Below, piece by piece: positions 1-16,977 of a stretch of DNA of 17,986 nucleotides. The stretch lies in the IMG/VR virus record IMGVR_UViG_2667528065_000005, one strand, 5' to 3'. The notes below the pieces were generated by a model, which saw only the letters and a program-made list of their open reading frames with translations, was not told the DNA's origin and made no database searches. Within the stretch, counting starts at the first letter, position 1. Each line of letters starts with the position of its first letter. The DNA is from a virus. Lineage: Duplodnaviria > Heunggongvirae > Uroviricota > Caudoviricetes. The translations under genes and the position numbers were made by a program.

Positions 1-350
1 CCTTAACTGATCGGCATTACAGCCAGATGCTGGGCTTTATTGCCGAAAACTATGATCAGGCGCTGACCATCAACGATGTGGCTGAGCACGTCAAACTTAA
101 CGCCAACTATGCAATGGGGATATTCCAGCGGGTCATGCAATTGACGATGAAACAGTACATTACCGCGATGCGCATCAACCACGTTCGCGCGTTACTGAGC
201 GATACCGATAAAAGTATTCTCGATATTGCCCTGACGGCAGGCTTTCGTTCGAGTAGCCGTTTTTACAGCACGTTCGGCAAATATGTCGGCATGTCGCCGC
301 AACAATACCGCAAACTTAGCCAACAGCGCCGCCAGACGTTTCCCGGCTAA
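1..350 (+). CDS. melR: AraC-family transcriptional activator, C-terminal part (5' end upstream of window); matches melibiose operon regulator MelR
   Basis: Frame open from the window edge to a stop at 348-350. Translation ends ...NYAMGIFQRV...FRSSSRFYSTFGKYVGMSPQQYRKLSQQRRQTFPG, an AraC-type HTH pair. Sits directly upstream of adiA as in E. coli. Confidence 0.7.
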   Translation, partial: LTDRHYSQMLGFIAENYDQALTINDVAEHVKLNANYAMGIFQRVMQLTMKQYITAMRINHVRALLSDTDKSILDIALTAGFRSSSRFYSTFGKYVGMSPQQYRKLSQQRRQTFPG

Positions 351-545
351 AGACGATATCAGTATCAGCCAAAAAAATAGTTTAGCCGTCGATAATAAGC
401 AGTGAAAATAATTTAAAATAATCACATAACGTATTGTTTATAAAAATAAATATTTCAAAAATGTTTGTTTTTCACGCGCTTTACAGCCCGAAAAGGCCGG
501 AAGATACTTGCCCGCAACGAAGATTCCTTCATAACCGGGTAAGCA
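351..545 (+). promoter_or_regulatory. AT-rich melR-adiA intergenic region, presumed adiA promoter and RBS
   Basis: About 195 bp of AT-rich non-coding sequence ending in an RBS-like stretch before the ATGATG start at 546. No promoter elements were mapped. Confidence 0.35.
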
Positions 546-2288
546 ATGATGAAAGTATTAATTGTTGAAAGCGAGTTTCTCCATCAAGACACCTGGGTCG
601 GTAACGCCGTTGAGCGTCTGGCAGATGCTTTAAGCCAGCAAAATGTTACCGTGATTAAATCCACCTCCTTTGATGATGGTTTTGCCATTCTCTCTTCAAA
701 CGAAGCCATTGACTGCCTGATGTTCAGCTATCAAATGGAACATCCGGACGAACATCAAAACGTCAGACAATTGATCGGTAAGCTTCATGAGCGCCAACAA
801 AACGTGCCGGTCTTCCTGTTGGGCGATCGGGAAAAAGCCCTCGCCGCAATGGACCGGGATCTGCTGGAGCTTGTCGATGAATTCGCCTGGATTCTGGAAG
901 ATACCGCCGACTTTATCGCCGGACGCGCCGTTGCCGCGATGACCCGCTACCGCCAGCAGCTATTGCCGCCACTGTTCAGCGCGCTGATGAAATATAGCGA
1001 CATCCATGAATATTCCTGGGCAGCGCCAGGCCACCAGGGCGGCGTTGGTTTTACCAAAACACCCGCCGGACGTTTCTACCATGACTATTATGGTGAAAAT
1101 CTGTTCCGCACCGACATGGGTATCGAACGCACTTCCCTCGGTTCTTTGCTTGACCATACTGGCGCATTTGGCGAAAGCGAAAGATATGCCGCACGCGTAT
1201 TTGGTGCCGATCGCTCCTGGTCGGTAGTCGTCGGTACTTCCGGCTCTAACCGCACCATCATGCAGGCTTGCATGACCGATAACGATGTAGTGGTCGTTGA
1301 CCGTAACTGCCATAAATCCATCGAACAAGGCTTGATGCTGACAGGCGCGAAACCGGTCTACATGGTGCCAAGCCGCAACCGCTACGGCATTATCGGGCCA
1401 ATCTATCCGCAGGAAATGCAACCTGAAACCTTGCAGAAGAAAATCAATGAAAGCCCGCTGACCAAAGACAAAGCCGGGCAAAAACCGTCTTACTGCGTGG
1501 TGACCAACTGCACCTATGACGGCGTGTGTTATAACGCTAAAGAAGCACAGGATCTGCTGGAAAAAACCTCCGATCGTCTGCACTTTGACGAAGCCTGGTA
1601 CGGCTATGCACGTTTCAACCCGATCTATGCCGATCACTATGCCATGCGCGGCGAACCTGGCGATCACAACGGTCCTACCGTTTTCGCCACCCACTCCACC
1701 CACAAACTGCTGAATGCGCTGTCACAGGCCTCTTATATTCATGTACGTGAAGGTCGTGGGGCGATTAACTTCTCCCGCTTCAACCAGGCCTACATGATGC
1801 ATGCCACCACCTCCCCGCTGTATGCCATCTGCGCATCCAACGACGTGGCGGTGTCGATGATGGACGGCAACAGCGGCCTGTCACTGACCCAGGAAGTGAT
1901 CGACGAAGCGGTTGATTTCCGTCAGGCGATGGCGCGGCTATATAAAGAGTTCACCGCTGACGGTAGCTGGTTCTTCAAACCGTGGAACAAAGAAGTCGTC
2001 ACCGACCCACAAACCGGCAAAACCTATGACTTTGCTGACGCACCAACCAAACTGCTGACCACCGTTCAGGACTGCTGGGTCATGCATCCGGGCGAAAGCT
2101 GGCACGGCTTCAAAGATATTCCGGATAACTGGAGTATGCTCGACCCGATTAAAGTCAGCATCCTTGCTCCGGGAATGGGTGAAGATGGTGAACTGGAAGA
2201 AACCGGTGTTCCGGCGGCGCTGGTCACAGCCTGGCTTGGTCGCCACGGCATTGTGCCTACCCGTACCACTGACTTCCAGATTATGTTC

Positions 2289-2320
2289 CTGTTCTCTATG
2301 GGCGCTGTTCTCTATGGGCG
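2289..2320. repeat. Perfect 16-bp tandem duplication (ctgttctctatgggcg x2) inside adiA; +1 frameshift
   Basis: Read directly: unit at 2289-2304 repeated at 2305-2320. Confidence 0.95.
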
Positions 2321-2367
2321 TGACCCGTGGGAAATGGGGGACTCTGGTTAACACCCTTTGCTCCTTC

Positions 2368-2409
2368 AAACGCCACTATGATGCCAACAAACGCCACTAT
2401 GATGCCAAC
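2368..2409. repeat. Perfect 21-bp tandem duplication (aaacgccactatgatgccaac x2) inside adiA; in-frame, duplicates KRHYDAN
   Basis: Read directly: 2368-2388 repeated at 2389-2409. Confidence 0.95.
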
Positions 2410-2436
2410 ACACCGCTGGCGCAGGTGATGCCGGAA

Positions 2437-2480
2437 CTTGTTGAACAATATCCTGACACTTGTTGAACAATATCCTGACA
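2437..2480. repeat. Perfect 22-bp tandem duplication (cttgttgaacaatatcctgaca x2) inside adiA; frameshift
   Basis: Read directly: 2437-2458 repeated at 2459-2480. Confidence 0.95.
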
Positions 2481-2501
2481 CTTACGCGAACATGGGGATT
2501 C

Positions 2502-2549
2502 ACGATCTGGGTGACACCATGTTTGACGATCTGGGTGACACCATGTTTG
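2502..2549. repeat. Perfect 24-bp tandem duplication (acgatctgggtgacaccatgtttg x2) inside adiA
   Basis: Read directly: 2502-2525 repeated at 2526-2549. Confidence 0.95.
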
Positions 2550-2562
2550 CCTGGCTGAAAGA

Positions 2563-2628
2563 AAACAACCCTGGCGCACGGTTGAATGAAGCCTAAAACA
2601 ACCCTGGCGCACGGTTGAATGAAGCCTA
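2563..2628. repeat. Perfect 33-bp tandem duplication inside adiA; the junction creates a TAA stop in the reading frame in use at that point
   Basis: Read directly: aaacaaccctggcgcacggttgaatgaagccta at 2563-2595 repeated at 2596-2628. The junction gcc|taa gives a stop at 2594-2596. Confidence 0.95.
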
Positions 2629-2637
2629 TTCCGGCCT

Positions 2638-2677
2638 ACCGGTGGCGGAAATCACCTCACCGGTGGCGGAAATCACC
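2638..2677. repeat. Near-tandem duplication, 19-nt core (accggtggcggaaatcacc) with period 21 and a 2-nt difference at the junction, inside adiA
   Basis: Read directly: copies at 2638-2656 and 2659-2677 separated by tc. Translates as VAEIT..VAEIT. Confidence 0.9.
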
Positions 2678-2781
2678 CCGCGTGAAGCGTACAACGCGAT
2701 TGTCGACAACAATGTCGAACTGGTATCCATTGAAAATCTGCCAGGACGTATCGCGGCAAACTCAGTTATCCCGTATCCGCC

Positions 2782-2816
2782 AGGAATCCCGATGCTGTCT
2801 AGGAATCCCGATGCTG
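2782..2816. repeat. Imperfect tandem duplication, 16-nt core (aggaatcccgatgctg) with period 19, inside adiA; net frameshift
   Basis: Read directly: copies at 2782-2797 and 2801-2816 separated by tct. Confidence 0.9.
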
Positions 2817-2988
2817 CTGTCTGGTGAAAACTTCGGCGATAAAAACAGTCCGCAAGTAAGTTATTTACGCTCGCTGCAATCCTGGGACCATCATTTCCCT
2901 GGATTTGAACACGAAACAGAAGGGACAGAAATTATTGACGGTATTTACCACGTTATGTGTGTGAAAGCGTAACCACTATTCCGCTGAA

Positions 2989-3015
2989 GGCGTAATTGTT
3001 AAATAACATTACGCC
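2989..3015 (+). terminator. Hairpin just downstream of the adiA stop (8-bp stem ggcgtaat/attacgcc with a partly self-complementary loop)
   Basis: Inverted repeat read directly; only a short T-run follows (ttttaag after a second short GC element). Confidence 0.4.
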
Positions 3016-3089
3016 GCCTGGCTTGAGGCCTTTTAAGTATGGCAACGTTTTCATAAAAATTGCTGCAAACAAAAAATGTCATGCTTTTT

Positions 3090-3117
3090 GCGCGGTCCCA
3101 CCCCGCGCTTTTTTTTG
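3090..3117 (+). terminator. Rho-independent terminator-like element: GC stem gcgcgg/ccgcgc, 7-nt loop, then a 9-T run
   Basis: Read directly: gcgcggtcccaccccgcgc followed by ttttttttt. Confidence 0.55.
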
Positions 3118-3593
3118 CCTGTTATTTATCCTTTTTTTAGCCTGTAAAAAAATATGTATCATGAGAAATTAGCCTATAAAAATATGTAATATTAGTAAAA
3201 CTCGTTATTTTTATGCATGTTTATATTCATCATACAATTATATAACCATTTCCCGGTATCGCTTCGCTTTAGCGAGAACTGGTCTTTTATTCGCACTCAG
3301 GAGTACATGTATGAGGATTTGCAGCGACCAACCTTGTATTGTTTTATTGACTGAAAAAGATGTCTGGATAAGGGTGAATGGGAAAGAACCTATTAGCCTT
3401 AAAGCTAACCACATGGCGTTATTAAATTGTGAAAATAATATTATCGACGTCTCCTCTCTTAATAACACTTTGGTTGCTCATATTAGTCACGACTATGCAT
3501 GCAAAGATTACCTCACGACATCATCAAAGATAACATCCGGTCTCGCAAATACCAGTATGGCAACGTAGCGCTACGCCCATCCTCACCCTTCCA

Positions 3594-3646
3594 TGCCTGA
3601 CGCCAGACGTCTTTCGCGTCTGCCTGACGCCAGACGTCTTTCGCGT
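3594..3646. repeat. Near-perfect 27-bp tandem duplication in adiY (26/27 identical); in-frame, duplicates CLTPDVFRV
   Basis: Read directly: tgcctgacgccagacgtctttcgcgt at 3594-3619 and 3621-3646. Confidence 0.95.
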
Positions 3647-3799
3647 TGCCGCGCAGCATAGCATGATGCCCGCTGAAACTGAGTCAGAAAAGGAACGAAC
3701 ACGTGCATTATTATTCACTGTGCTATCCCGTTTTCTCGACAGTAAAAAATTCCTTTCACTAATGATGTATATGTTACGTAATTGTGTAAGTGACAGCGT

Positions 3800-3841
3800 T
3801 TATCAAATTATTGAAAGCGATTATCAAATTATTGAAAGCGA
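3800..3841. repeat. Perfect 21-bp tandem duplication in adiY (ttatcaaattattgaaagcga x2); duplicates YQIIESD
   Basis: Read directly: 3800-3820 repeated at 3821-3841. Confidence 0.95.
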
Positions 3842-4267
3842 TATCCACAAAGACTGGAATCTTAGTATGGTAGCCAGTTGTTTATGTCTTAGCCCAAGTC
3901 TGTTAAAGAAAAAGCTGAAAAGCGAAAACACCAGTTATAGCCAAATAATCACCCACCTGCCGCATGCGTTATGCCGTAAATGAATTAATGATGGACGGTA
4001 AAAATATCTCTCAGGTATCACAGTCCTGCGGCTACAACAGTACGTCGTACTTTATTTCTGTCTTTAAAGACTTCTACGGTATGACGCCGCTGCATTATGT
4101 TAGTCAGCACAGAGAACGCACTGTCGCCTGATTTTTAACCTTAACGAAGAGCTATATTAATAACGGCATCAGCGATAACCCGGCCGATAATAATTCAACT
4201 ATCGAATGCAGGCGTATGATATGACGTAATTTATTGTCACGAAGCTCGCCTTCGCAGGAGTTTAATT

Positions 4268-4777
4268 ATGTCTTCGGATGCTGATGCTCACAAAGTGGGC
4301 TTAATCCCCGTCACCCTGATGGTGTCGGGGAATATTATGGGGTCAGGTGTTTTTCTGTTACCTGCAAACCTGGCCTCCACTGGCGGGATTGCTATTTATG
4401 GATGGTTGGTGACGATTATCGGTGCGCTGTCGGTGCGCTGGGGCTCTCGATGGTATACGCCAAAATGTCGTTCCTCGACCCAAGTCCTGGTGGTTCTTAC
4501 GCTTACGCCCGCCGCTGCTTTGGCCCGTTTCTCGGTTATCAAACCAACGTCCTCTACTGGCTGGCCTGCTGGATCGGCAATATCGCCATGGTGGTCATTG
4601 GCGTAGGATATTTAAGTTACTTCTTCCCGATTCTGAAAGATCCATTGGTATTAACCATCACCTGCGTCGTGGTGCTGTGGATCTTCGTCCTGCTGAACAT
4701 TGTCGGTCCGAAAATGATCACCCGCGTACAGGCCGTTGCTACCGTGCTGGCGCTGATCCCCATCGTCGGGATTGCCG
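4268..4777 (+). pseudogene. adiC: Arginine:agmatine antiporter AdiC, 5' portion only; frameshifted by an 11-bp tandem duplication and cut off by the prophage junction
   Basis: [54 protein letters not shown] in frame 2, then ...[47 protein letters not shown]...IPIVGIA in frame 1. Coding sequence diverges into unrelated DNA after about 4777. Confidence 0.85.
4419..4440. repeat. Perfect 11-bp tandem duplication (tcggtgcgctg x2) in adiC; frameshift
   Basis: Read directly: 4419-4429 repeated at 4430-4440. Confidence 0.95.
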
Positions 4778-4782
4778 GAGGG

Positions 4783-4935
<153 letters not shown>

Positions 4936-4944
4936 TTGCAGATA

Positions 4945-5334
4945 TTACTCTTTTTTCTCCGTATCTGCATCGGGTTCATCAGCAAATAGCTTGCCCTGCA
5001 TCCGATCCAGTTCTTCTTTTCTTACCCGCTTAACCACGCTGTAGACCCACTGAAGCGAAACACCAAATTTGCGGGCCAGTTCGTGGTGGTTGCGTCCGTT
5101 AAACTCCCTGAAGATTTCCCGGTCGCGCTGACTGACCTTCCATACCATGCCCATCGGGAAATAAACGTTTTGCCCGCCCCAGACCTGCATCATTCGGTTC
5201 GCGACGGCCTGACCAATCTGGTCGGCAACTTCGGGCTCAATATCAATAATCTCGCGAACGGTCTCAGAGGTATGCTGTGCCAGTTCCACCAGGAGTTCCG
5301 GCCCCTTACTTCGAAACTGATTCAGGTCGCTCAT
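4945..5334 (-). CDS. mor: Mor/C-family phage transcriptional activator
   Basis: 129 aa. C-terminal ...GGQNVYFPMGMVWKVSQRDREIFREFNGRNHHELARKFGVSLQWVYSVVKRVRKEE matches the recalled Mu Mor pattern (GGGQVYIPRG...RD..I...FNGRN..EL...YGV....VYK..RR). Confidence 0.75.
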   Translation of the reverse strand: MSDLNQFRSKGPELLVELAQHTSETVREIIDIEPEVADQIGQAVANRMMQVWGGQNVYFPMGMVWKVSQRDREIFREFNGRNHHELARKFGVSLQWVYSVVKRVRKEELDRMQGKLFADEPDADTEKKE

Positions 5335-5755
5335 GTTTGACTCCCGCAGCTCTGCGCTGCCACTTCTTCAGTTTCTCAATAACACTGCTTGCCTGTTCAG
5401 TACTGAGCCAGCGCAGGGCGCTGATGCCCGTTTCCCGCTTGATCCACCTCGCTAATGCATTTTCTGAACGGTCACGAACAATGCCGGCAGCAGCCATTTC
5501 AAGCCATAGCGCACGAATTTTCCTGGACTGCGGATGGTTATCAAGCGGTAAACCGGAGCTGGCTTTTCTGGCTGGTTTAACGCGAAAGCCTTTCTTTTTC
5601 ATGGATTCCAGCACGCAGTTTAGTTGTGTGGTATCCATTCCTTTGGTTGAGGCTTTACCGGTCAGCCCCTGTAACATCTGGCGGTAGGTGTCTTCATCCA
5701 TACCCAGTTCATTACGGGCAATATGGATAAGCTGTATCAGGCGTTTTTTCTGCAT
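5306..5755 (-). CDS. gemA: GemA-like phage protein (Mu gp16 / DUF1018 family)
   Basis: 149 aa. N-terminal LIQLIHIARNELGMDEDTYRQMLQGLTGKAS...GF pattern typical of GemA-family proteins. Overlaps the mor start by 29 bp. Confidence 0.65.
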   Translation of the reverse strand: MQKKRLIQLIHIARNELGMDEDTYRQMLQGLTGKASTKGMDTTQLNCVLESMKKKGFRVKPARKASSGLPLDNHPQSRKIRALWLEMAAAGIVRDRSENALARWIKRETGISALRWLSTEQASSVIEKLKKWQRRAAGVKHERPESVSK

Positions 5756-5756
5756 A

Positions 5757-5963
5757 TCATCTCCTTTTTTTCAGTCTGTCGGCAACAATGTCGGTTGCAG
5801 CTGGCAGGGTGACTGGCCAGAACAACATGACGGCGGTCATGTACAGGATGTAATGCGCGGTGTCGTAGTGCCTGCCATAGCCCAGGGAACGATGAAGTCT
5901 TGCGCTGCATGATCCTGCGTACATATACCAGAAAAGAAAACAGACAATGGTTTCAGTAGTCAT
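5757..5963 (-). CDS. Small hydrophobic protein (about 68 aa, two predicted TM segments), hypothetical
   Basis: Internal ATG at 5963 preceded by a GGGGAGG Shine-Dalgarno. The longer 120-aa frame would overlap the upstream gene. Confidence 0.4.
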   Translation of the reverse strand: MTTETIVCFLFWYMYAGSCSARLHRSLGYGRHYDTAHYILYMTAVMLFWPVTLPAATDIVADRLKKRR

Positions 5964-6183
5964 TCTGAATACCTCCCCATTCGATATGAATATTACGGGC
6001 AGCAATGACAGGGTCGTTATTCCACCATGCACCTGACATGTATTTTTCAACCTGTTCGCGTCCGGCAATAACACCAATTGTGATCCCCGGCCTGACGTTC
6101 TTAAAAAAGGCGCGGGCAAAAAGGTATCTGGCAGATATTCGGCAGGCTTTTAATTTCCGGCTTTTACCTGATAGCGTAATCAT
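5953..6183 (-). CDS. Hypothetical phage protein (76 aa)
   Basis: ATGA start/stop overlap with the upstream gene at 6180-6183 and a GGAGG upstream; fits tight operon packing. Confidence 0.45.
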   Translation of the reverse strand: MITLSGKSRKLKACRISARYLFARAFFKNVRPGITIGVIAGREQVEKYMSGAWWNNDPVIAARNIHIEWGGIQNDY

Positions 6184-6863
6184 CTGGCCTCCAGTTTCTG
6201 TTGTTCCTGCCCACTGACCGGGCGGTGCAGTCTGACGTTCTGCCCTTCACGAAACCCCGCATAGCGCGAGGCGTCGCCATTGCGGCTTCTTCCCGGTTTA
6301 CGCGCCCTGGTGGTTTGCGTCTGCGGGTATTTATGTTCCAGCCACTGCTGCATCAGTTCACGCTCATCATCGGTCAGGGCAAAGGACTGTATTTCACTGA
6401 TAACGGCCAGCACCCAGCCTTCGGCAAACTGGTCTCCACGGCTGGTGCGGGTGGCGGTTTTTATTCTTTTGTTCTGTGCACTGATATACTGCTGACGCGC
6501 CTTTTTCAGCTGACGGGCCAGCACTTCCCAGGTGTATGCAGCCAGTGCCGCACGTTCCCGGTTGCCGTAGAACCCCACAGACGGATGCGTGCCGGGGTGA
6601 ATGATGGAGTTAACACCAAATACCTCGCGGATGATGTTCATCAGGCCCAGCATGTAGCGCGGTGGACGGAGACTGCCTGTCGGCCAGTAGTGACTGATGG
6701 TTTCATCAATATCACTCATAGCAATGTCGGAATGTGTGATGCCGTGAACATCCATCAGTTTACGGGCTCGGCGCAGTGCCAGAGCGGCCTCGTGCGGGTT
6801 GCCGGATGCGGCCAGCGCCAGCAACTTTTTCAGTTTCTCAATGTGTTTATTCTGGTCTGTCAT
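6180..6863 (-). CDS. Hypothetical phage protein with DUF2786-like N-terminus
   Basis: Translation from the internal Met (MTDQNKHIEKLKKLLALAASGNPHEAALALRRARKLMDVHGI...) resembles the DUF2786 N-terminal pattern. ATGA overlap with the upstream gene at 6860-6863; an alternative start at 6899 is possible. Confidence 0.5.
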   Translation of the reverse strand: MTDQNKHIEKLKKLLALAASGNPHEAALALRRARKLMDVHGITHSDIAMSDIDETISHYWPTGSLRPPRYMLGLMNIIREVFGVNSIIHPGTHPSVGFYGNRERAALAAYTWEVLARQLKKARQQYISAQNKRIKTATRTSRGDQFAEGWVLAVISEIQSFALTDDERELMQQWLEHKYPQTQTTRARKPGRSRNGDASRYAGFREGQNVRLHRPVSGQEQQKLEAR

Positions 6864-7075
6864 TGTTCTGTATCTCCGGTATTTTTCTGCCGTTTCCATG
6901 CCCGGACAGCGTCGGACAGCTCTTTCAGGCTGTATGCTGCTTTAAGCTTTTCCCATAACCACTGTGTTGTTATGTGCATCAGCAGGGCAGCCAGGGCTGC
7001 CCCCGCACTGAGGCATGTCGCCAGGCCAGTAAGAATCAGTGTCCATGCGGTGATTTCCCTGAGTATGTCAGCCAT
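6860..7075 (-). CDS. Small membrane protein (71 aa), hypothetical
   Basis: Hydrophobic stretch WTLILTGLATCLSAGAALAALLM; packed in the operon. Confidence 0.45.
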   Translation of the reverse strand: MADILREITAWTLILTGLATCLSAGAALAALLMHITTQWLWEKLKAAYSLKELSDAVRAWKRQKNTGDTEQ

Positions 7076-7089
7076 TGAATGCCTCCCGG

Positions 7090-7386
7090 TTACTCGTTCG
7101 TGTAAATCACGCCCAGTCGTGCAGCCAGACGTTCCAGTTTTTTCTGTTTGTGGAAGTCAATCAGCCGGTCCATCCCCTGAAGGCGCAGTTGCTCTGTCAT
7201 GATTTCCACGTCTGCCAGCTCTGCCGCGAGGTCACTTTCGCTGCCCTGTCCGTTCAGGTTGCGGGCGGCACTGGCCGCCAGTTCAGCGGCCTCTTCTGCC
7301 AGTTTCAGGGCCTGTGCGTCCGGCCCGAAACGCTGCAGGGCCAGACGGTAGAGGGCGGTGCGGGTGAGTTCGGTGTTTCGTGTCAT
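7090..7386 (-). CDS. MazG-like nucleotide pyrophosphohydrolase domain protein (small all-alpha NTP-PPase)
   Basis: 98 aa with LKLAEEAAELAAS ... ELADVEIMTEQL, resembling the EExxE...E/D metal-binding motifs of MazG-like NTP pyrophosphohydrolases. Confidence 0.5.
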   Translation of the reverse strand: MTRNTELTRTALYRLALQRFGPDAQALKLAEEAAELAASAARNLNGQGSESDLAAELADVEIMTEQLRLQGMDRLIDFHKQKKLERLAARLGVIYTNE

Positions 7387-7395
7387 GCCGCGCCC

Positions 7396-7668
7396 TCAGT
7401 GCTTCCGGCTGACGGTGATGTGCAGGCCGCCTTCTGCAGTGGTTTCCATCCGGTACGGCACCTCATGCTCTGCCGTGTGGGTGAGTGTGTTCATCAGTAC
7501 CTGCAGGGCAGCCTCCTTTCCGTTGGTCGCCACAATGGCCTGTGTGGCCATGCTGATTAGCGCCGTCAGGACGTGCTTCACATCGGTGAGGTCGCGGCAT
7601 TCACACTCGTTGACATAGTGTTCAACAAGAGTTCGGGTGCGCTGTCGTGCTTCCTGTGGGGTAATCAT
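7396..7668 (-). CDS. Hypothetical phage protein (90 aa)
   Basis: ORF in operon register; 4-bp overlap with the upstream gene. Confidence 0.45.
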   Translation of the reverse strand: MITPQEARQRTRTLVEHYVNECECRDLTDVKHVLTALISMATQAIVATNGKEAALQVLMNTLTHTAEHEVPYRMETTAEGGLHITVSRKH

Positions 7669-7859
7669 TGCGCGTCCTCCCTGTCAGGGCGGGAGAATTC
7701 CATGACGGGCACGTCCGCCGAAAAATGCTGGCTGCAGTACGGGCAGACCAGGGTGACACGTACTGCAGGTATGTGATACTTACCGGACATCACGGCGATG
7801 GCGCTGTGAAAACGCAGGGCTGTTATATCCCTCTCGCACTGAATACATTTAAATATCAT
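7665..7859 (-). CDS. Small zinc-ribbon-like protein (CxxC...CxxC), hypothetical
   Basis: 64 aa with KCIQCE ... VCPYCS cysteine pairs. Confidence 0.45.
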   Translation of the reverse strand: MIFKCIQCERDITALRFHSAIAVMSGKYHIPAVRVTLVCPYCSQHFSADVPVMEFSRPDREDAQ

Positions 7860-7956
7860 AATTTAATTCTCCTCTGTTTCCGGCGTGCAGAAGCCCGCGG
7901 CGCTGACGCCGGAATAAAAAAGAAAATGTTTTTATTAAATAATTAACGTGGTGTGT

Positions 7957-8487
7957 TTACTGCACATCCTGCTCAAAAGGAATTATTGAAAAATCCTCAA
8001 TATCACTTTTTATGGTAATACCGGGAATATTTTTCACAGCCTCTTTTTCATTCAGAATGGCATCTTTATTTATTTCCTCCTTTACACGAATAAAGCGCTC
8101 AAGCCCCAGACGTCTCAGCAGTTCAATGACATTATCCGCCCCGCGAATGCTGACTGACGGCGGACGGTTTCGCCACTGCACCTCGCCGGTGGTGAGGTTA
8201 GCGAACTTCACCTTCCCGTTGCCGGTCAGTTCATCACGGTGCGCCTCACACCATGTCTGGATACCGGACTGCAGTTCGGCCATGCGTTTTTTCAGGCTCT
8301 CGGTGAGCGGGGCATAACGTGCAGTGATGTCGCCAATGGTGTCATTCATTTCTGTTTCAGCCCTGACCAGTTCACGTTGCGCGTCACCAAGCAGTCTGAT
8401 TCCCTCAATGACCTCTTCGCGTGTCCCCGGCACCCAGAGTGCTGCTGCGGCTTTGATACGTTTTGCCCCTTTTGTACTTTTTGCCAT
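7957..8487 (-). CDS. gam: Host-nuclease inhibitor Gam (Mu Gam-like DNA-end-binding protein)
   Basis: 176 aa. MAKSTKGAKRIKAAAALWVPGTREEV...TEMNDTIGDIT...WCEAHRDELTGNGKVKFANLTTGEVQWRNRPPSVSIRGADNVIELLRRLGLERFIRVKEEINK...GITIKSDIEDFSIIPFEQ aligns along its length with the recalled Mu Gam. Confidence 0.85.
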   Translation of the reverse strand: MAKSTKGAKRIKAAAALWVPGTREEVIEGIRLLGDAQRELVRAETEMNDTIGDITARYAPLTESLKKRMAELQSGIQTWCEAHRDELTGNGKVKFANLTTGEVQWRNRPPSVSIRGADNVIELLRRLGLERFIRVKEEINKDAILNEKEAVKNIPGITIKSDIEDFSIIPFEQDVQ

Positions 8488-8514
8488 ATTTTATGACTCC
8501 TCCTGTTGTGCTGA

Positions 8515-8784
8515 TTACCACAAAGATTCCGGCCACACGACGCGACAGCCGTGCAGTTCGAAAACGCCCTGACGGAAATGTCCCCTGTGGTCATGACCGG
8601 TATACAGATAACAGGCCTTTCCCTGCTCAAGCATGCGCATGCAATGCGCACTCCGGGAAACGCGGATGACAGGTTTGTTACCCCTGATGGTGATGCTTTG
8701 TACATCCGTGTTCGTCGCCTTAAGCGCCATAATGGCTGACTGCACTTTGCTGATTTGCTGGTTGATACCTGTGGTGGATTTCAT
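8515..8784 (-). CDS. Hypothetical phage protein (89 aa) between the MuB-like gene and gam
   Basis: ORF in operon register, 2 bp after the B-like stop. Confidence 0.45.
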   Translation of the reverse strand: MKSTTGINQQISKVQSAIMALKATNTDVQSITIRGNKPVIRVSRSAHCMRMLEQGKACYLYTGHDHRGHFRQGVFELHGCRVVWPESLW

Positions 8785-8786
8785 TA

Positions 8787-9953
8787 TTAAACCCCTTTGA
8801 CAACGTCAGCGTTGACCTGTGGAACCCCGATTTCAGCGGCCAGATTCATGGCGGCTATTACCAGGTTACTGACGGCCAGCGGATACAGCAGGCTGACCAT
8901 ATTTTTACGATGACTTCCCGGATTGCTCAGGCGGGCACGTATGGCATCCACTGCGCTGGCGTCCATAATGTCCGTCAGTTGTTTACCGGCCCGTTGCAGT
9001 TTGAACGTCAGAAACTCTTCAAGGTTATTGTCCAGAGGCAGAAGTTCGACCACCTCACAGCGCTGAACGACTTCACGGACTTCCATATTGCGTTCAGACA
9101 GTTTTGTCGCCAGTTCCGGCTGGCCAATCAGCACGATGGACAGCAGTTTTTTGAAACCGGACTCCAGCTCAAAAAAGCGTTTGAGGTGTTTCAGTGTCGG
9201 AATGGGCAGACTGTGGGCCTCCTCAATCACCAGAACGTGGCTGAACCCCGCCTGGCTGCTGTCTTTCAGGACGCGATGCAACTGGCGAAAGCGGGCGTCC
9301 TGACTGCGTCTGATGCTTTCCAGTGGTGCGATGGTACTGATAATGGCTTCGGCAATCGCTGCTGCCTTCAGGGTTTTCCCTTTCACATCGTTGTCTTCCA
9401 TAGCGATGATGTATGGCTCGATAACAATTACCGGCGCATTCTCGCGGTTGATACGTTCAGTCAGGTCGCGGCGCAGCGTGGATTTACCCGCACCGGACTC
9501 ACCGATGACGGCCATAAACCCACCATGACGGGCTGTCTGGTACAACGCCTCACGCACGTAGCGAATATCCGGGGTGGTGAACACATCATCAGAACCCTGC
9601 ATGGCTTCGTCGGCGAACGGGTCACGGAAAAGACCAAACGCTTTTTTGGTTGCTGGAAATAACACCTGTTTTTTGAGTAACATATTCTCTTCCTCACTGA
9701 GGCTCGTTTTATCTGTGGTACCCGCTGTACGGGGCGTGGCCGCGCCCTGTACAGCATCAAAACTCTTCGTTGTATCAATCCCCTGACTTTCCAGCCAGGA
9801 CGCAAGACGCCGGCGCACTTCTCCGGGGCTGGTGCGGGGCCACGCGTTATGATTCACAATCTGGGCCAGCGTGGCCTCAGAAACATCGACAGCTCTCGCC
9901 ACCACCGCCTGTGGAATACGGGCCTCTTTCAGTTGCTGCTTCAGTACCAGCAT
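8787..9953 (-). CDS. MuB-like AAA+ ATPase (transposition target/activator protein)
   Basis: Walker A GESGAGKST and Walker B HVLVIEEAH; N-terminal HTH-like region. Likely start is the ATG at 9953 with GGAGGG upstream (the longest frame extends to 9992). Immediately downstream of the transposase gene. Confidence 0.8.
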   Translation of the reverse strand: MLVLKQQLKEARIPQAVVARAVDVSEATLAQIVNHNAWPRTSPGEVRRRLASWLESQGIDTTKSFDAVQGAATPRTAGTTDKTSLSEEENMLLKKQVLFPATKKAFGLFRDPFADEAMQGSDDVFTTPDIRYVREALYQTARHGGFMAVIGESGAGKSTLRRDLTERINRENAPVIVIEPYIIAMEDNDVKGKTLKAAAIAEAIISTIAPLESIRRSQDARFRQLHRVLKDSSQAGFSHVLVIEEAHSLPIPTLKHLKRFFELESGFKKLLSIVLIGQPELATKLSERNMEVREVVQRCEVVELLPLDNNLEEFLTFKLQRAGKQLTDIMDASAVDAIRARLSNPGSHRKNMVSLLYPLAVSNLVIAAMNLAAEIGVPQVNADVVKGV

Positions 9954-9963
9954 GTTTCCCTCC

Positions 9964-11733
9964 TCAGTTGCCGTTAACAATGCTGATAACACTGCTGCGG
10001 GCCGGTGTGGTCAGCGTGGCCATGACTTCATCCAGTGCGGCTTCCGGTACGCCGTCCGGGTACTGTGCCGTTAACTGGCGGTAATGTTCCGGCGTCCAGG
10101 TAAGGCCGTCGGCGCTGAACTTATCGCGCAGGGCTTTCGCGGCCTCCACATGAGTCATGGGACGTTGTTCAGTGCGCGGCCCGCGTACGTCAGAGGCCTG
10201 ACCACGCTTCGGCATATAGGCCGGAAGTGTGGTGTCGTCGATATGTTTATACGGGTCAAGCCGCCCGCCGAACGGCAGCGCCTTCGCCTTGCGTGCGGCG
10301 GCTGCATCTGCGGCGTTGTCTGTACCGGTAACCAGCGCTTCGGTTTCTTTTGCCGCCATCTGTGCCGGGGTTTCCGGCAGGGCTTTGTAACTTTCGCCAA
10401 ATACCGCCGCGCCTTCAGCAAAGCCAAACTCGTTCTTTCTGACCTCTTCGACCAGGAAGAACGTCTCGTGGCCGTCCTCACCGGTCAGAACCACCTGTGC
10501 CACATCGCTGCGCCATGGGTTACGGGTAATCATCAGTTTTTCACCAACCAGTACGCCCGGTACCGTTGATACGTCAAATTCAGTGCCCCGGAACGAGACA
10601 CGAAGTTTTGGCGTGACTTTGCGGAGTTCTGGTGCCGCCACAGCCAGTTCACGACATACCTCAACGGAAGGCGCTTTTTTCAGCTGCTCAGCAGTAATCT
10701 TCAGCCAGATATCCGTGCGGGTTTTACCGTGGCGGCTGTGAACAGCCGTGGCGTTAAAGTGGCTGCGCCATTTCGCGGCCAGCGCGTTGAGTTCTTCCAG
10801 ACTGTGAACCGGCCGGAACTTCAGACCCGGCTCCAGCTTGCGTTCGATAATGTCACGCGCCTTTTCCACCTGTCCGGTGGCGCGGGCGTTATGCGGCTTG
10901 TGCGCTATCAGGTCAATGCCCAGTGAGCGGCACATGTTTTTCGTCATACCCGCGGTGTTTGCCGAACCGGGGTCGAGATAGAGTATTTTTGGCACGCCGT
11001 GCAGCACGTCTGCGCCGCCACGCTCCTGCATGGCGTTGATAAGCACAGAACACAGGTTCTCACCGGATTCCGCACCCGTCACATACTCAACGTAAATCCA
11101 GCCGCTGGCATGGTCGGTAATCTCGTAACTCCACACGCGGTCACTGGCGATACGGGCAAGGTTAGCGGGTTTGTTCTTGTAGAACTTCGCGCTGTCCATC
11201 ACCTGCAGCCCTTTGTGTCCATTGCTCAGGTAGTAAAGCGTGCAGAGCGAGGCATCAATCTGCCAGACATGATTGGGATGCAGACTGGCCACTTCGGTAT
11301 GCGGCGCAGGAGCATCCAGTTGTTCCGGGTGCAGGCCATAGTTACGCAGGGCACGACTGATGGCATCTTCGGACAACGGGAAAAACTCACCGGTGGTTTC
11401 ATCTGTTCTGCCTGCGGAGATAAAGCCGTTAGCCCGCAGGGTTTCCACTGCATCCGCGATGGAATAGAGACGCTTACCGTTCTTGCGGGTGGCCTCACGC
11501 AGTGTGGCAGATATCAGCGCGGCTTCGTCGCGGGTCAGGGCGCTGCGTCCGGCATCAGCGCGTTTTTTGCGTTTATCAGTCACAGAGACCTCCTTCAGCC
11601 TGCGCAGCAGAGTGGCGCGGGACATGCCAAGTTCAGCACAGGCAGCGTCGTATATTGCACCGCGTTTACCATGCCCCGCGTCACGTGCCGCGCGGGCGAC
11701 ATAAACCAGTCGTTCAGTCAGGGCAGCATTCAT
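9964..11733 (-). CDS. DDE transposase (Mu A-like / rve-fold)
   Basis: 589 aa. N-terminal HTH-like region, then candidate catalytic residues in HVWQIDAS, LYLDPGSANT and NARATGQVEK. GGAGG upstream of the start. Confidence 0.8.
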   Translation of the reverse strand: MNAALTERLVYVARAARDAGHGKRGAIYDAACAELGMSRATLLRRLKEVSVTDKRKKRADAGRSALTRDEAALISATLREATRKNGKRLYSIADAVETLRANGFISAGRTDETTGEFFPLSEDAISRALRNYGLHPEQLDAPAPHTEVASLHPNHVWQIDASLCTLYYLSNGHKGLQVMDSAKFYKNKPANLARIASDRVWSYEITDHASGWIYVEYVTGAESGENLCSVLINAMQERGGADVLHGVPKILYLDPGSANTAGMTKNMCRSLGIDLIAHKPHNARATGQVEKARDIIERKLEPGLKFRPVHSLEELNALAAKWRSHFNATAVHSRHGKTRTDIWLKITAEQLKKAPSVEVCRELAVAAPELRKVTPKLRVSFRGTEFDVSTVPGVLVGEKLMITRNPWRSDVAQVVLTGEDGHETFFLVEEVRKNEFGFAEGAAVFGESYKALPETPAQMAAKETEALVTGTDNAADAAAARKAKALPFGGRLDPYKHIDDTTLPAYMPKRGQASDVRGPRTEQRPMTHVEAAKALRDKFSADGLTWTPEHYRQLTAQYPDGVPEAALDEVMATLTTPARSSVISIVNGN

Positions 11734-11736
11734 TGG

Positions 11737-12648
11737 TTATGCCTCCAGCCCGTTAATCTGTGGCGTCGGCTCAGTCAGCCATGAAGGCGCGGCATTGCCT
11801 GTTGGCTCATCCGGCAGGTCAAATGTGGAGCGCAGGCTACGCGCTGTGCTTTCCAGTTGACAGACCAGGCCTGCCATGAAGTCTCTGGGGGTATCAATCA
11901 TGTTTTCAGCACAATATGCGCACAGCGTCTCAAAAGCGCTGGACAGTCGAACGGCGATAGCAGATTCCGCCTCAACCGCTAATGCTGTCACTTCCGCCCG
12001 CAGCTTCTTAACCTCTTCATCAGGCTCAGGCGGCTGAATACGGGATTTCTTCTCCAGTCTGGTGGAGAGTGAGTCTATTTTTTCATTTTTGTCAGCGAGT
12101 ACGCGCTGTTGTGCTGCGTTGGTTTCGCGCGCTTCGCGCAGGGCCTGACGCAATTCACGTACTGACATGCGATCAACGTCGTCAAGCGTCAGGCCGGCAA
12201 CTGTGCCGCCGTCGGCCAGTTCGGCAAGCTCTTCGTCGTCTTCTGTCATTAATTCGAAAAGTTTGGCTTTTCCCAAATGTGCCAACGTTGGCACATTTGG
12301 TTTCAGCGCCGGGGATAAGTATTTTGTCGATGCTTGCATCATTCTCACAGATGTCCGGTATGCCAGCCCCAACTCACTTTCAAGAATCTTTATAAACTCC
12401 CCGTGTGGTTCATTTTCCTTAAGGATTATCAGCCGCTTACCTGCCTCCAGCATGGCCTCAGCGCTCTGTGCCATATAAAAGCGTGCCTCATGGACAACAC
12501 GATCGCGCTCATAGGGCAGACCATCGCCGAACTGTTGCATGATTTCCATGCGATGCTGTGTCATGGCGTTTAGACTGACATTGAGATCATCCGACAGCGG
12601 TACCTCGACGTTCAGTTCAGTGCTAACCGGTGATTTGGTGCGTCCCAT
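11737..12648 (-). CDS. Hypothetical phage protein (303 aa) with a coiled-coil-like acidic central region
   Basis: Long ORF with AAGGAG upstream of the start; lies between the Ner-like genes and the transposase. Confidence 0.55.
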   Translation of the reverse strand: MGRTKSPVSTELNVEVPLSDDLNVSLNAMTQHRMEIMQQFGDGLPYERDRVVHEARFYMAQSAEAMLEAGKRLIILKENEPHGEFIKILESELGLAYRTSVRMMQASTKYLSPALKPNVPTLAHLGKAKLFELMTEDDEELAELADGGTVAGLTLDDVDRMSVRELRQALREARETNAAQQRVLADKNEKIDSLSTRLEKKSRIQPPEPDEEVKKLRAEVTALAVEAESAIAVRLSSAFETLCAYCAENMIDTPRDFMAGLVCQLESTARSLRSTFDLPDEPTGNAAPSWLTEPTPQINGLEA

Positions 12649-12658
12649 TGATTACTCC

Positions 12659-12967
12659 TTACAAACGACTACCTGAAATAACACGTTGGTTGATTTCGTT
12701 AATGCGATCCTGTGCACGTGCCATCTCGTTACTGTGGGCCATGGCGATCTGCAGCAACTGGATGCCTGGTGCGAAACGCCCGTTTTCTAGTTTCAGAGCC
12801 AACCCTTCTTCAATGAGCGTGTTAAGTGCCCGGTTGATGTTTGCCGGTGATTCGTGCAGTGCAACCGCTAGTTCCCCGTTAGAAACACCGTTCAAAGCGT
12901 GGCCACGTAAGGCCTTAAGAACGCGCAAAATACGGGTACCTGAGCTTGATGTATTTGGTTTATTCAT
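12659..12967 (-). CDS. Winged-helix/HTH DNA-binding protein (102 aa)
   Basis: GTRILRVLKALRGHALNGVSNGELAVALHESPANINRALNTLIEEGLA resembles an HTH of the IclR/MarR type. 4-bp overlap with the upstream gene. Confidence 0.5.
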   Translation of the reverse strand: MNKPNTSSSGTRILRVLKALRGHALNGVSNGELAVALHESPANINRALNTLIEEGLALKLENGRFAPGIQLLQIAMAHSNEMARAQDRINEINQRVISGSRL

Positions 12968-13188
12968 GACGCCTCCTTAAGGATACCGGGGGTAACTTCT
13001 TTACCTATTGCAACCGATAGATCTCGCAAAATCCGATAAGTCAAACGACCGCGAGGTAGTTCACTTTTACCAGCCCAGCGACTGACTGCCTGGGTGACTG
13101 TTCGTGGTTCATAGCCCGCGTTAAGCGCGAACTGGCGCAAGCTACTGCCTCGTTCAACCAGCCGTGCCCGAACTTGTTGTTTGTTCAT
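12964..13188 (-). CDS. ner: Ner-like DNA-binding protein (Ner/Nlp family)
   Basis: VRARLVERGSSLRQFALNAGYEPRTVTQAVSRWAGKSE matches the recalled Mu Ner pattern (ADVIAGLKKRKLSLSALSRQFGYAPTTLANALERHWPKGE). Divergent from the repressor gene. Confidence 0.65.
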   Translation of the reverse strand: MNKQQVRARLVERGSSLRQFALNAGYEPRTVTQAVSRWAGKSELPRGRLTYRILRDLSVAIGKEVTPGILKEAS

Positions 13189-13276
13189 ATGCACCGTGTT
13201 CCTGTTAGGTTATGATGTACTCTATTGGGTCTATTGTACACACCCAAATGAGTGTGTCAAATTGAGATATGTTCAA
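13189..13276. promoter_or_regulatory. Divergent ner / repressor control region with candidate operators
   Basis: 88-bp gap between divergent genes. Contains inverted repeat ACACAC-N8-GTGTGT (13238-13257) and direct repeat tctattg x2 (13221-13236). Confidence 0.4.
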
Positions 13277-13684
13277 ATGAGTACAAAAGAGAGATTGCGT
13301 GAAGTGATGGATGCTAATGGCATGACAATAAAGGCATTATCTAACTTATCAAAAATTCCATATCGCTCACTTCAAAACTATTTGCGTGGAGAGAGAGAAC
13401 CAAACGCAGAGGCTCTTGTTGCGCTAAGCACCCATTTGGGTGTATCGATCGATTGGCTACTTACCGGTAAAGAACATATTCCATCTAAAGAAATTGTTGC
13501 TGTACCAACACAACATCAATTCAGCCCGTCAGACCTTAAAATGCTTGAACTTCTAAACCAGTTAGATCCTGAGGTTCGGCGAGATCTCATGCGAGGCGCT
13601 GAAGAAAAACAGCGTGTGATTGAGATGGAAAAACAACTGAAGGAATTATCCGCAACGATTGAGCGGTTAAAAAATGTGGGTTAA
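13277..13684 (+). CDS. XRE-family (Cro/CI-type HTH) phage repressor with C-terminal coiled-coil
   Basis: MSTKERLREVMDANGMTIKALSNLSKIPYRSLQNYLRGEREPNAEALVALSTHLGVSIDWLLTG is a typical XRE HTH. Divergent from the early operon. The ORF track's longer frame starts at 13181, but that would overlap ner. Confidence 0.65.
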   Translation: MSTKERLREVMDANGMTIKALSNLSKIPYRSLQNYLRGEREPNAEALVALSTHLGVSIDWLLTGKEHIPSKEIVAVPTQHQFSPSDLKMLELLNQLDPEVRRDLMRGAEEKQRVIEMEKQLKELSATIERLKNVG

Positions 13685-13754
13685 TGTGTTCCTAACGAGA
13701 ACATATAGCAGAAATTATTTGCCATTAAGCAATAAAAAATAAGGTGGATAGCTA

Positions 13755-14762
13755 ATGTCTGAGCAGACCATTGAAGTTAAACACGTTGTAGTTCACATTT
13801 TAGACAAACAACAAAATGGAGACGCTTCTGAGAGATTGAGTCCTGAAGAAGGTCTAGTTACTGAAGCCTCCCAGCGCCTTATAAACGATATTTGTGCAAA
13901 ATATGCAGGACGCACAGGTAAAGGTTATGGCTATTTTGAAGGCGATACGGATAACTATCCTATGGAACGAATGGCTGGGGACTTTCTCGAAGGTGTTGAT
14001 GATTTCTACCAAAGTTCCTGCCGAATGATGCATCACCTGACGGAACGTTCTCAGCGAGAAAACATGGCTACTGGTGGTTATGTTCTTTTTGCAAATATCG
14101 TGATAGGACACAATGAACACCTGTTGATAGCTATTGTAAGCGCTACCATTGGATCCACTGTCACAGATGATTTTAACATCCAAGATAGTACCTATCTTGA
14201 TATTGCTAAGCTGCGTATGGCTGGGCGCATTGACTTAACCGCGTGGGAAAGTGGCGCAGAGCGCTATATCAGTTTTCTTAAGGGGCAAGGTAATGTTTCA
14301 AACTATTTTAAACAGTTCCTCGGCTGTAATGATGTCTTAATCGCCAAACGAGAGTCTGAAAAGTTACGTGACGTTTTAAAAGCATTTGCGGCAGAGAAAG
14401 GACTTGACGGCGCTGAAAAAGATGCATTTCTTAAGAGTGCGTTTGAACACTTACATGCACTAAGTAAGGCTGGTGAACCACTTAGTCTTGAAACCCTTGT
14501 TAATGCCATTTGGCCCCAGGCTCCCGAGGAGTTATCTGGTAAACTTGCTGCTGAAGAGTTGGAGTTATCGGATGGCTTCGTTCCTGATGGTCGAGTCATT
14601 CGGGCTCTGGTATCTTTTAAAGGCAAGTCTAAATATTGGGAACTTAAGTTTGACCGGGAAGGGAAAACTGAAGGCTATATTGATTATGATCCGGAAACAA
14701 ATATTATCACCCTACGTAATGTACCTGAAGAATTTAGGGAAATGTGGATGACTGAGGTTTAA
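13755..14762 (+). CDS. Divergent YejK/NdpA-family nucleoid-associated protein homolog (335 aa), prophage cargo
   Basis: Shared blocks with recalled E. coli YejK along the whole length: GGYVLFANIVIGHNEHLLIAIV, YLDIAKLRMAGRIDLTAWE, YISFLKGQ, YFKQFLGCNDVLIAKRE...AEKGLDGAEKDAF, ITLRNVPEEFRE. AAGGTGG Shine-Dalgarno before the ATG. Confidence 0.65.
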   Translation: MSEQTIEVKHVVVHILDKQQNGDASERLSPEEGLVTEASQRLINDICAKYAGRTGKGYGYFEGDTDNYPMERMAGDFLEGVDDFYQSSCRMMHHLTERSQRENMATGGYVLFANIVIGHNEHLLIAIVSATIGSTVTDDFNIQDSTYLDIAKLRMAGRIDLTAWESGAERYISFLKGQGNVSNYFKQFLGCNDVLIAKRESEKLRDVLKAFAAEKGLDGAEKDAFLKSAFEHLHALSKAGEPLSLETLVNAIWPQAPEELSGKLAAEELELSDGFVPDGRVIRALVSFKGKSKYWELKFDREGKTEGYIDYDPETNIITLRNVPEEFREMWMTEV

Positions 14763-14764
14763 TC

Positions 14765-15970
14765 GTGGCGATTTCATTTGAGATGCTGACAGATCTGTAT
14801 CGTCGTATGGAATTCCAAGAGGGGTTTCGTGTCGGTTCGCTGTTGCTCTTAGATCAGTCCGATTGTGATCTGGTTGATACTTTGCTTGATGATCCTCGTG
14901 AATATGGTCTTTCTATTGATACAGGCACTATCGCTCCAGGTAACACGATCATCCTACGTGTGACGTCACCACGGAGTGGACTGGGACTTGTGTTTTCCAC
15001 CCATGAAAAATTGCTAAATGCTCCAAAGCATCAGTGCCTTGAGCCAGCTAATTACTTCATCCTAGAAACAAAGTTTCGTAATGATGATGAAGATATCCCC
15101 GTTTTCATCAGCAACTACCGGAAGATTCTCGAGTTCGTTAACCTGCTAAAAGAGGCCGCGGCCTACTTTGATAACTCAACTTGTCAGTTAGTTTTTCTGA
15201 AAAAAGAAGTTATCAAGCTATTACCGCACTTCGCTGCAGAAAATGTACAAAATTTGCAAAGAGAGTATCTTGATAACCTTATAGCTTGTTTCAATGATGA
15301 TACCCATAAGGATCAGAAGCTAGATATTCTGATTGAAAGTATCCAAGCAGTTAGTGATGGAATTGATTCACCTCTAGTATTCGCTTATTTACTGGACAAT
15401 ATTCAGCGTCTGCATGAAAAGTTTCTGAAAGGGTATCGTATCTACTCTTCTGGATTCTCTTATGACAAAGTAATGGATCAACTGCGTGCTGCAAAAGTCG
15501 AAGAAATGGGTAAAATCCACAAAGCGTTTTCAGATATCCAGAACCATATACTTGGCATTCCTGTTGCCTCTGTTATCGTAGCTACCCAATTCAAAGTGGC
15601 TACGAAATGGTCAGGCCAAGGGATAACAAACACAATAATTCTTCTGGGATGCATTTTTGCTGCAACGTTAATCTGGCTGGCACTTTCGAACCAGATGCAA
15701 TCTATAAAGGCCTTAGGCGAAGAAATTGAATACAAAGAAAAACAGATTAATAAGGAATATTCCTTCATTAAAGATGACGTGGCTGGTGTATTTAGCAGTA
15801 TTTCTGCGCGACTAGACACGCAGAAACGTACGTTCTGGATTATACGTGGTGTTCTAGTTATGGGAATTATTACCGCTATCACTGTTTATTTTTGGTACAC
15901 AAAACCAGCCCTTGACTTCATGCAGTACTTGATTCACTGCATGAAGTCTTACTATTCGGTCAAAAGTTGA
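14765..15970 (+). CDS. Hypothetical 401-aa protein: soluble N-terminal region plus two or three C-terminal transmembrane helices; coupled to the YejK-like gene
   Basis: GTG start 2 bp after the upstream stop with GAGGT upstream (an alternative ATG lies at 14783). Hydrophobic helices TNTIILLGCIFAATLIWLAL and FWIIRGVLVMGIITAITVYFWY. No family recognised. Confidence 0.6.
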   Translation: MAISFEMLTDLYRRMEFQEGFRVGSLLLLDQSDCDLVDTLLDDPREYGLSIDTGTIAPGNTIILRVTSPRSGLGLVFSTHEKLLNAPKHQCLEPANYFILETKFRNDDEDIPVFISNYRKILEFVNLLKEAAAYFDNSTCQLVFLKKEVIKLLPHFAAENVQNLQREYLDNLIACFNDDTHKDQKLDILIESIQAVSDGIDSPLVFAYLLDNIQRLHEKFLKGYRIYSSGFSYDKVMDQLRAAKVEEMGKIHKAFSDIQNHILGIPVASVIVATQFKVATKWSGQGITNTIILLGCIFAATLIWLALSNQMQSIKALGEEIEYKEKQINKEYSFIKDDVAGVFSSISARLDTQKRTFWIIRGVLVMGIITAITVYFWYTKPALDFMQYLIHCMKSYYSVKS

Positions 15971-16730
15971 GGATAATGAGTTCCTTCTTGCGACTGGATT
16001 TGCCAGTGATCTTGAGGTTGTAGCTGATATCAACCGACTGAATATTTAGACCGTTGAATGCCTGCCGCATTTCCGGGATATCGTTCACCGATATAATCAT
16101 CTTCCCTTTGATCCTGCGTGCTAAATCTGCCATATGATCATAATTTTCTAGTCCGAACTCCACACCATAACCTTCCGTTCCCCAGTATGGAGGGTCACAG
16201 TAGAACAACGTATGCGGGCGATCATATCGTTCTATGCACTGTTGCCAGTCCATGTGTTCTATGACCGTTCTGGAAAGCCGCAGGTGTGCCGCTGACAGTT
16301 CTTCTTCAATACGCAGCAGGTTGAAGCGTGGCGGGGATATGGTGGAGGTACCAAAGCTGTGCTCCGCCACCTTGCCTCCAAACGCCTGCTTCTGAAGGTA
16401 GTAGAACCGTGCTGCACGCTGGATATCCGTCAGTGTTTCTTCCGGGGTGATCTGCAGCCATTTGTAGATCTGCCGGCTGACCAGCGCCCATTTGAACTGG
16501 CGTACAAATTCTTCCAGATGATGTTTTACCACCCGATACAGGTTCACCAGTTCACCGTTGATATCATTAATGACTTCGATCTTGCCGGGTACCTTAAGAA
16601 AATAGAGCGCTGCTGCCCCACAAAACGGCTCCACATAACATTCATGCGCCGGAAACAGCGGCAGGATGTGTTTTGCAAGGCGGCGTTTGCCACCAATCCA
16701 TGGAACGATGGGTAATGTCTGCATTTTCAT
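15960..16730 (-). CDS. Dam-type N6-adenine DNA methyltransferase (D12 class)
   Basis: 256 aa with FCGAAALYF (AdoMet-binding region) and the catalytic DPPY motif. Convergent with, and overlapping by 11 bp, the 3' end of the 401-aa gene. Confidence 0.8.
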   Translation of the reverse strand: MKMQTLPIVPWIGGKRRLAKHILPLFPAHECYVEPFCGAAALYFLKVPGKIEVINDINGELVNLYRVVKHHLEEFVRQFKWALVSRQIYKWLQITPEETLTDIQRAARFYYLQKQAFGGKVAEHSFGTSTISPPRFNLLRIEEELSAAHLRLSRTVIEHMDWQQCIERYDRPHTLFYCDPPYWGTEGYGVEFGLENYDHMADLARRIKGKMIISVNDIPEMRQAFNGLNIQSVDISYNLKITGKSSRKKELIILNF

Positions 16731-16772
16731 AATCTGTAAGCCTTTTACAATTATAAAAAATATGGCAGGCTA

Positions 16773-16794
16773 GTCTGGTCTCGCGAGACTGACT
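16773..16794. promoter_or_regulatory. About 22-bp imperfect palindrome with a perfect 12-bp core GTCTCGCGAGAC; candidate operator or activator site
   Basis: Read directly: agtctg-GTCTCGCGAGAC-tgact, core at 16778-16789. Lies about 48 bp upstream of the dam start and about 190 bp upstream of the first lysis gene. Confidence 0.35.
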
Positions 16795-16835
16795 GAACCT
16801 CGGTCGGCTCACAGCGCATTCCTGTGGGGCGATGG

Positions 16836-16873
16836 CCAGCCCGGTGTTCGGGTACCGGGCTGGTCGTTCTTTC
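16836..16873 (+). terminator. GC-rich hairpin (ccagcccgg / ccgggctgg, 10-nt loop) followed by a T-rich tract; terminator- or attenuator-like
   Basis: Read directly; function uncertain because no plus-strand gene ends just upstream. Confidence 0.3.
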
Positions 16874-16977
16874 AAAGTCATCATGCAGTGCACGTTTACA
16901 TCTTCACTATTAACGCTGTTTAAAATCCGTATCCCGCCACATTTGTGATGCTGTCTCCACCAAACGAGGAGACACAC

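Follow-up and report, generated by a model that had tools for sequence, protein, structure and literature searches.

AdiY is an activator of the AraC/XylS type encoded between adiA and adiC. Acid-resistance loci based on amino-acid decarboxylases have been lost in pathogenic E. coli and in Shigella, the "black holes" around cadA being one example. The clone dealt with here resembles these cases in that its arginine-dependent system should be disabled, AdiC being reduced to 169 of 445 aa, but the disabling event differs: judging from the sequence, it should be the insertion of a Mu-like prophage into adiC, and not the lesions seen in adiY. Two known problems of draft genomes are close to what was found at this locus. 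Overlapping contig ends, or "negative gaps", are a recognised assembly problem (PMC4091766), and T>G is a characteristic systematic miscall of Illumina sequencing (PMC3295828). Like negative gaps, the present lesions are pure insertions repeating the adjoining 11-33 nt between colinear flanks, vary between assemblies of the same clone and are gone on independent reassembly; they differ in that the joins are made without a run of N and that seven of them lie within 0.5 kb. The resemblance to Illumina miscalls consists in four T>G changes at the prophage junction and in deviations located at the distal ends of upstream copies, whereas C>T, T>C, T>A and insertions of 1-2 nt also occur in the zone. 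The four T>G changes do not correspond to the classic GGT motif, since only the first of them follows a G in the true sequence.

The whole stretch of DNA analyzed (hereafter the window, 17,986 nt) corresponds to the complete contig AOQI01000070.1 of a 2013 draft assembly, GCA_000397365.1, and its features are listed in Table 1. All 14 differences that are private to the window with respect to other E. coli fall in 2289-4782; by our own arithmetic, a uniform distribution would give this result with a probability of 0.139^14, or about 1e-12. Nine perfect or near-perfect tandem arrays were found, every one of them in 2289-4440. We estimate that about 1e-4 perfect tandem repeats of at least 16 nt would be expected by chance per 18 kb, and the arrays are therefore not due to chance. 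The densest stretch of lesions is that in adiA (2289-2800), with seven duplications inside 0.5 kb; the pieces of adiA between the junctions measure 83, 70, 68, 69, 64 and 142 nt. In the spacer between adiA and adiY, the top match among 5,417 E. coli genomes is 99.4% identical, which corresponds exactly to the 4 private differences, and the possibility that the +T, +GC and T>A might be natural variants was rejected because the nearest of these genomes differs by precisely these changes.

Table 1. Position and nature of the host and phage segments of the window and of the lesions they carry
Feature	Position	Strand	Remarks
3' end of melR and 5' part of adiA, lesion-free	20-2288	+	100% identical to many E. 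coli genomes
3' part of adiA with seven tandem duplications	2289-2800	+	16, 21, 22, 24, 33, 21 and 22-minus-3 nt
+T, +GC and T>A, private to the window, in the adiA-adiY spacer	3159-3184	+	
adiY as deposited	3311-4131	+	821 nt, versus 762 normally; split into three ORFs
Complex lesion in adiY	3494-3540	+	Net +10 nt; first frameshift
Extra 27-nt copy in adiY	3594-3620	+	In frame; last base C, reference T
Extra perfect 21-nt copy in adiY	3800-3820	+	In frame; equal to 3821-3841
One extra C in adiY	3951-3953	+	CACCACC becomes CACCCACC; second frameshift
Extra 11-nt copy in adiC	4419-4429	+	Frameshifting
GAGGG in place of TATTT at the adiC-prophage junction	4778-4782	+	Four T>G, including the terminal T of the phage
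Mu-like transposable prophage (partial) in adiC, lesion-free	4783-17986		

In alignments with strains 104 and D8 of E. coli, the loci of which are annotated, adiY is the gene flanked by adiA and adiC, all on one strand. It should consist of one ORF of some 253 aa, with a helix-turn-helix of the AraC type at the C-terminus, and the deposited gene does not provide this: as an earlier note on this DNA had stated, adiY is split over three different frames, the ORFs being located at 3311-3568, 3663-3983 and 3964-4131 (85, 106 and 55 aa, respectively). The NCBIfam profiles, with which the adiY products were searched, include no AdiY-specific model; the top match was GadX, under its cutoff. Outside five lesions, positions 3311-4131 show no substitution with respect to the adiY genes of E. 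coli 104 and D8, and when the five lesions are cut out, a 762-nt ORF remains that equals the adiY of both strains (WP_001217059.1).

Several of the earlier readings of these lesions hold. The near-perfect 27-bp duplication described at 3594-3646 is a 27-nt insertion with respect to the reference, in which 26 of the 27 positions are equal (the 26-mers 3594-3619 and 3621-3646 are identical at a spacing of 27 nt, as repeat finders also report). The 21-bp duplication at 3800-3841 is perfect, the second frameshift is explained by one surplus C as compared with the reference, and the deposited adiY does show the same duplication signature as adiA. The first frameshift was less well placed. It had been assigned to 3534-3568, an interval which is the gap between the stop codons at 3531-3533 and 3566-3568, and no duplication had been recognized there. 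The lesion begins 40 nt upstream of 3534 and hides a degenerate duplication of about 23 nt, that of ACGACATCATCAAAGATTACCTC: copy 1 carries three 1-nt insertions and copy 2 carries two substitutions, after which 16 nt are deleted.

Apart from this complex lesion and its 16-nt deletion, the duplication events (10 out of 11) are pure insertions, the flanks of which are colinear with the reference and identical to it. In all five of the imperfect duplications, the deviation is located at the distal end of the upstream copy. It consists of a C>T two bases before the end at 2638, a loss of 3 nt at 2782, the last base at 3594, the three insertions at 3494 and, in the 29-nt duplication of sister contig L009, seven garbled final bases. 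The ambiguity at the junctions of the perfect duplications amounts to 0, 2, 4, 0, 1, 1 and 0 nt, only slightly more than the 0.7 nt or so expected by chance according to our own estimate.

A composite query consisting of junction-spanning 44-mers for the ten duplications was run against 5,426 complete E. coli genomes, and none of them matched. The earlier note had left room for the repeats being native to wild-type alleles, and in these genomes this is not the case. An exact scan of the GTDB representatives for the junction of the 27-nt duplication also gave no match, although this set contains one genome per species and the result therefore carries little weight. At the protein level, two AdiY fragments form one-member clusters among approximately 15 billion proteins; the four ORFs that carry lesions are confined to this one NCBI contig, and none of them occurs in the Logan assemblies of public read sets.

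Other assemblies of the same clone are available for comparison. A 169-aa AdiC fragment of the same protein cluster, which ends in ...GIAVFD and results from the clean fusion of adiC to the phage end, was found in 11 contigs, including the Logan contigs of SRR653724, SRR653737, SRR653739 and SRR653745, the contig AOQB01000082.1 and a 40-kb contig derived from IMG/VR. Every one of these 11 contigs encodes a 253-aa AdiY, and the domains PF12833 and PF00165 were detected in sister loci. The four Logan contigs mentioned above align with E. coli D8 at 100.000% identity and without gaps, up to D8 6670-9035, a range which takes in every lesion site of the window, and their phage parts are the same as that of the window. 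Since the Logan contigs keep the junction yet are wild type, the prophage insertion is real and shared, whereas the lesions are not. If adiY were a pseudogene in this lineage, the same lesions should be present in independent data, and they are not: the four Logan contigs and the sister contigs L009 and L014 all have an intact adiY. The earlier note had implied a regulator broken in the organism, which is not supported. A lack of support from reads, which the note had named as a refutation, is shown indirectly: assemblies built from the reads of four SRA runs of the same clone, with the identical prophage-adiC junction, encode the intact 253-aa protein.

The lesions of adiY, adiA, the spacer and adiC are thus very probably errors made in the draft assembly that was deposited; the bacterium would not have mutated, and its adiY is most likely intact, a wild-type gene of 762 nt. 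As far as adiY is concerned, the case for an artefact is strong but indirect, and the isolate could in principle differ from its clone-mates. In the simplest reading, region 2289-4782 was poorly covered or poorly assembled and tiled from short pieces, either single reads or tiny contigs, which overlapped by 11-33 nt. These pieces, which would have been as small as reads given that the junctions in adiA lie 64-83 nt apart, would then have been butted end to end without being merged, so that each overlap would be written out two times and look like a tandem duplication. Base-call errors left standing where pieces end would account for the indels of one base, for the substitutions and for the garbled sequence at 3494-3540. 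Low read depth and a joining step in the software are the causes that we infer. Some further points count against an artefact: the lengths of 6 out of the 10 duplications are divisible by three; 14 lesions crowd into 2.5 kb while the neighbouring 2.3 kb has none, a closer grouping than would result from uniformly low coverage; and some junctions show 1-4 nt of microhomology, as real slippage would also give.

The clone-mate Logan contigs are short (1.5-3.4 kb) and break in the adi region, and two of their starts are lesion boundaries. Contig L013 starts exactly at 3621, where copy 2 of the 27-nt duplication begins, while the start of contig L010 (3159/3160), the +T of the window at 3159 and the boundary of a duplication in L009 all fall at D8 7483/7484. 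Since these starts match lesion boundaries, the lesions of the window and of L009 sit where other assemblies of the clone also break, which suggests sequence-specific dropouts in coverage or k-mers at fixed positions of the adi locus. Based on the start of L013, SRR653737 was considered as the source run of the window; this was not supported, L013 being unbroken through the sites of the 21-nt and 11-nt duplications.

Two sister contigs carry lesions of their own. In AOQB01000082.1, which belongs to E. coli TOP379 (PMC5060011), adiY is intact, but a 29-nt duplication splits adiA, and duplications of 44 and 29 nt are present in the adiA-adiY spacer. IMGVR_UViG_2695420576_000002 shares its first base with the window, and its adiA and adiY are clean; three duplications are stacked in its adiC, and a garbled patch lies within the first 20 nt of its phage. 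The positions of the lesions therefore differ between the three contigs, which represent one clone and one series of submissions, as an artefact predicts. In each of them, lesions are numerous in the host flank and the phage part is clean.

Further differences concern the window and its sister contigs. The first 30 nt or so of the phage end vary among the sister contigs (L008 6045-6075; L014 4613-4640, reverse complement), and in L008 and L014 this patch holds bits of adiC from downstream of the insertion (CTGGTTCCG and TTCCGTGG). Reads from occupied and empty sites may have been merged here, as could happen if the population was mixed or if material was carried over between samples. Positions 1-19 of the window, CCTTAACTGATCGGCATTA, are unlike melR, and this patch is absent in 5,399 complete E. 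coli genomes; a near-identical patch stands in place of GCAATTTTATGT within melR of sister contig L009 (1501-1518), and another opens sister contig L014 (reverse complement). It could be either a true variant of the lineage or a recurrent artefact of the pipeline.

Among the alternatives to a draft-assembly artefact, the best placed, though improbable, is that the lesions are real mutations of the isolate, the adi locus having become useless after the arrival of the prophage and having decayed by slippage-type duplications and small indels. The prophage in adiC would indeed have relaxed the selection on adiY, the lesions are internally consistent with disruption of the frame, and short tandem duplications which break the frame, some of them with the 1-4 nt of microhomology mentioned above, are also what slipped-strand pseudogenes show. 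Decay of this kind is nevertheless difficult to reconcile with 14 indel-type lesions in 2.5 kb accompanied by zero ordinary substitutions, with errors polarised to the ends of one copy, the upstream one, with junctions spaced at the size of reads, or with a phage end whose terminal T has become a G, as one of several clustered T>G changes. The lesions were also irreproducible in the lineage: the clone-mates with the same insertion are wild type, the sister assemblies contain lesions of this kind that are different ones, the read-based assemblies are free of them, and the lesions recur in no other genome or protein set.

A second alternative, which is a variant of the artefact and differs in its cause alone, is that the template was mixed, and that conflicting reads near the insertion, and not low depth alone, gave rise to the lesions. 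The consensus would have been built either from cells with and without the prophage or from multiplexed sister isolates with carry-over between them. The downstream adiC bits in the phage ends of L008 and L014 and the contrast between the lesion-rich host flank and the clean phage in all three sister contigs would fit this explanation. A mixture at the insertion site, however, leaves the duplications of adiA, 2.5 kb away, unexplained; the pieces contain no SNPs from a second strain, and the Logan contigs pass cleanly through the junction. We consider this cause quite improbable.

It is hardly credible that a process tied to the prophage, such as aborted transposition or error-prone repair or restart synthesis at a Mu-type end, repeatedly produced short templated duplications beside the phage end: the lesion zone does measure about 2.5 kb and abuts that end, and in the three sister contigs the host flank and not the phage is affected, but all the objections to real mutations hold here too, the read-based assemblies of the clone are lesion-free, the lesions of L009 reach up to 5 kb from the phage, into melR, and we know of no mechanism that yields such a pattern. 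Were the duplications real, they would reflect a mutational process affecting the host DNA beside a Mu-type prophage end, with bursts of templated tandem duplications of 11-33 nt, free of base substitutions, that arose independently in sister isolates; this is highly improbable.

With the lesions attributed to the draft assembly, the prophage insertion is what is left of the biology. At the true junction (4777-4783), adiC is cut after codon 168, where GCCGTATT is directly followed by TGATTAG. The insertion is common to at least 7 Logan SRA runs, a sister NCBI assembly and IMG/VR contigs. In view of the odd GAGGG, the adjacency of adiC and the prophage in the window was considered as a possible chimeric join, and this was rejected because the clean junction is present in seven Logan runs as well as in other contigs. 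At four independent insertions elsewhere, the phage end reads 5'-TGATTAGAC; its terminal T is invariant and is missing in the window. The other prophage-adiC junction, for which a 5-bp target duplication was assumed (pattern CAGTATTTGGCTGG...), had no match in IMG/VR.

Taken at face value, AOQI01000070.1 would suggest a multi-hit pseudogenised adi locus with an odd duplication signature. It serves mainly as a caution, since it would feed false pseudogene calls and false singleton clusters into databases, where two one-member clusters are already present. The clone probably consists of urinary E. coli isolates of the TOP series. What survives is modest: a recently mobile Mu-like prophage is inserted into adiC, and arginine-dependent acid resistance is predicted to be abolished in spite of intact adiA and adiY genes.

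The prophage part of the window (4783-17986) encodes Mor, GemA, Gam, an ExeA/MuB-like ATPase, an rve transposase, a repressor and lysis genes. These 13.2 kb are 100% identical in three complete genomes (including L002 6001-19204 and L005 301-13504), and this identity is observed at different sites, which points to very recent mobility of the prophage. The other sites, in three unrelated genomes, are a lambdoid tail gene, a position beside cmoB and the start of a record. In the early operon (4945-13684), a gene for a Ner-like helix-turn-helix protein comes first and mor last, with those for the rve transposase, the MuB-like ATPase and Gam in between; transcription proceeds in the direction of the phage end at 4783, with the repressor in the opposite orientation, a layout unlike that of phage Mu.
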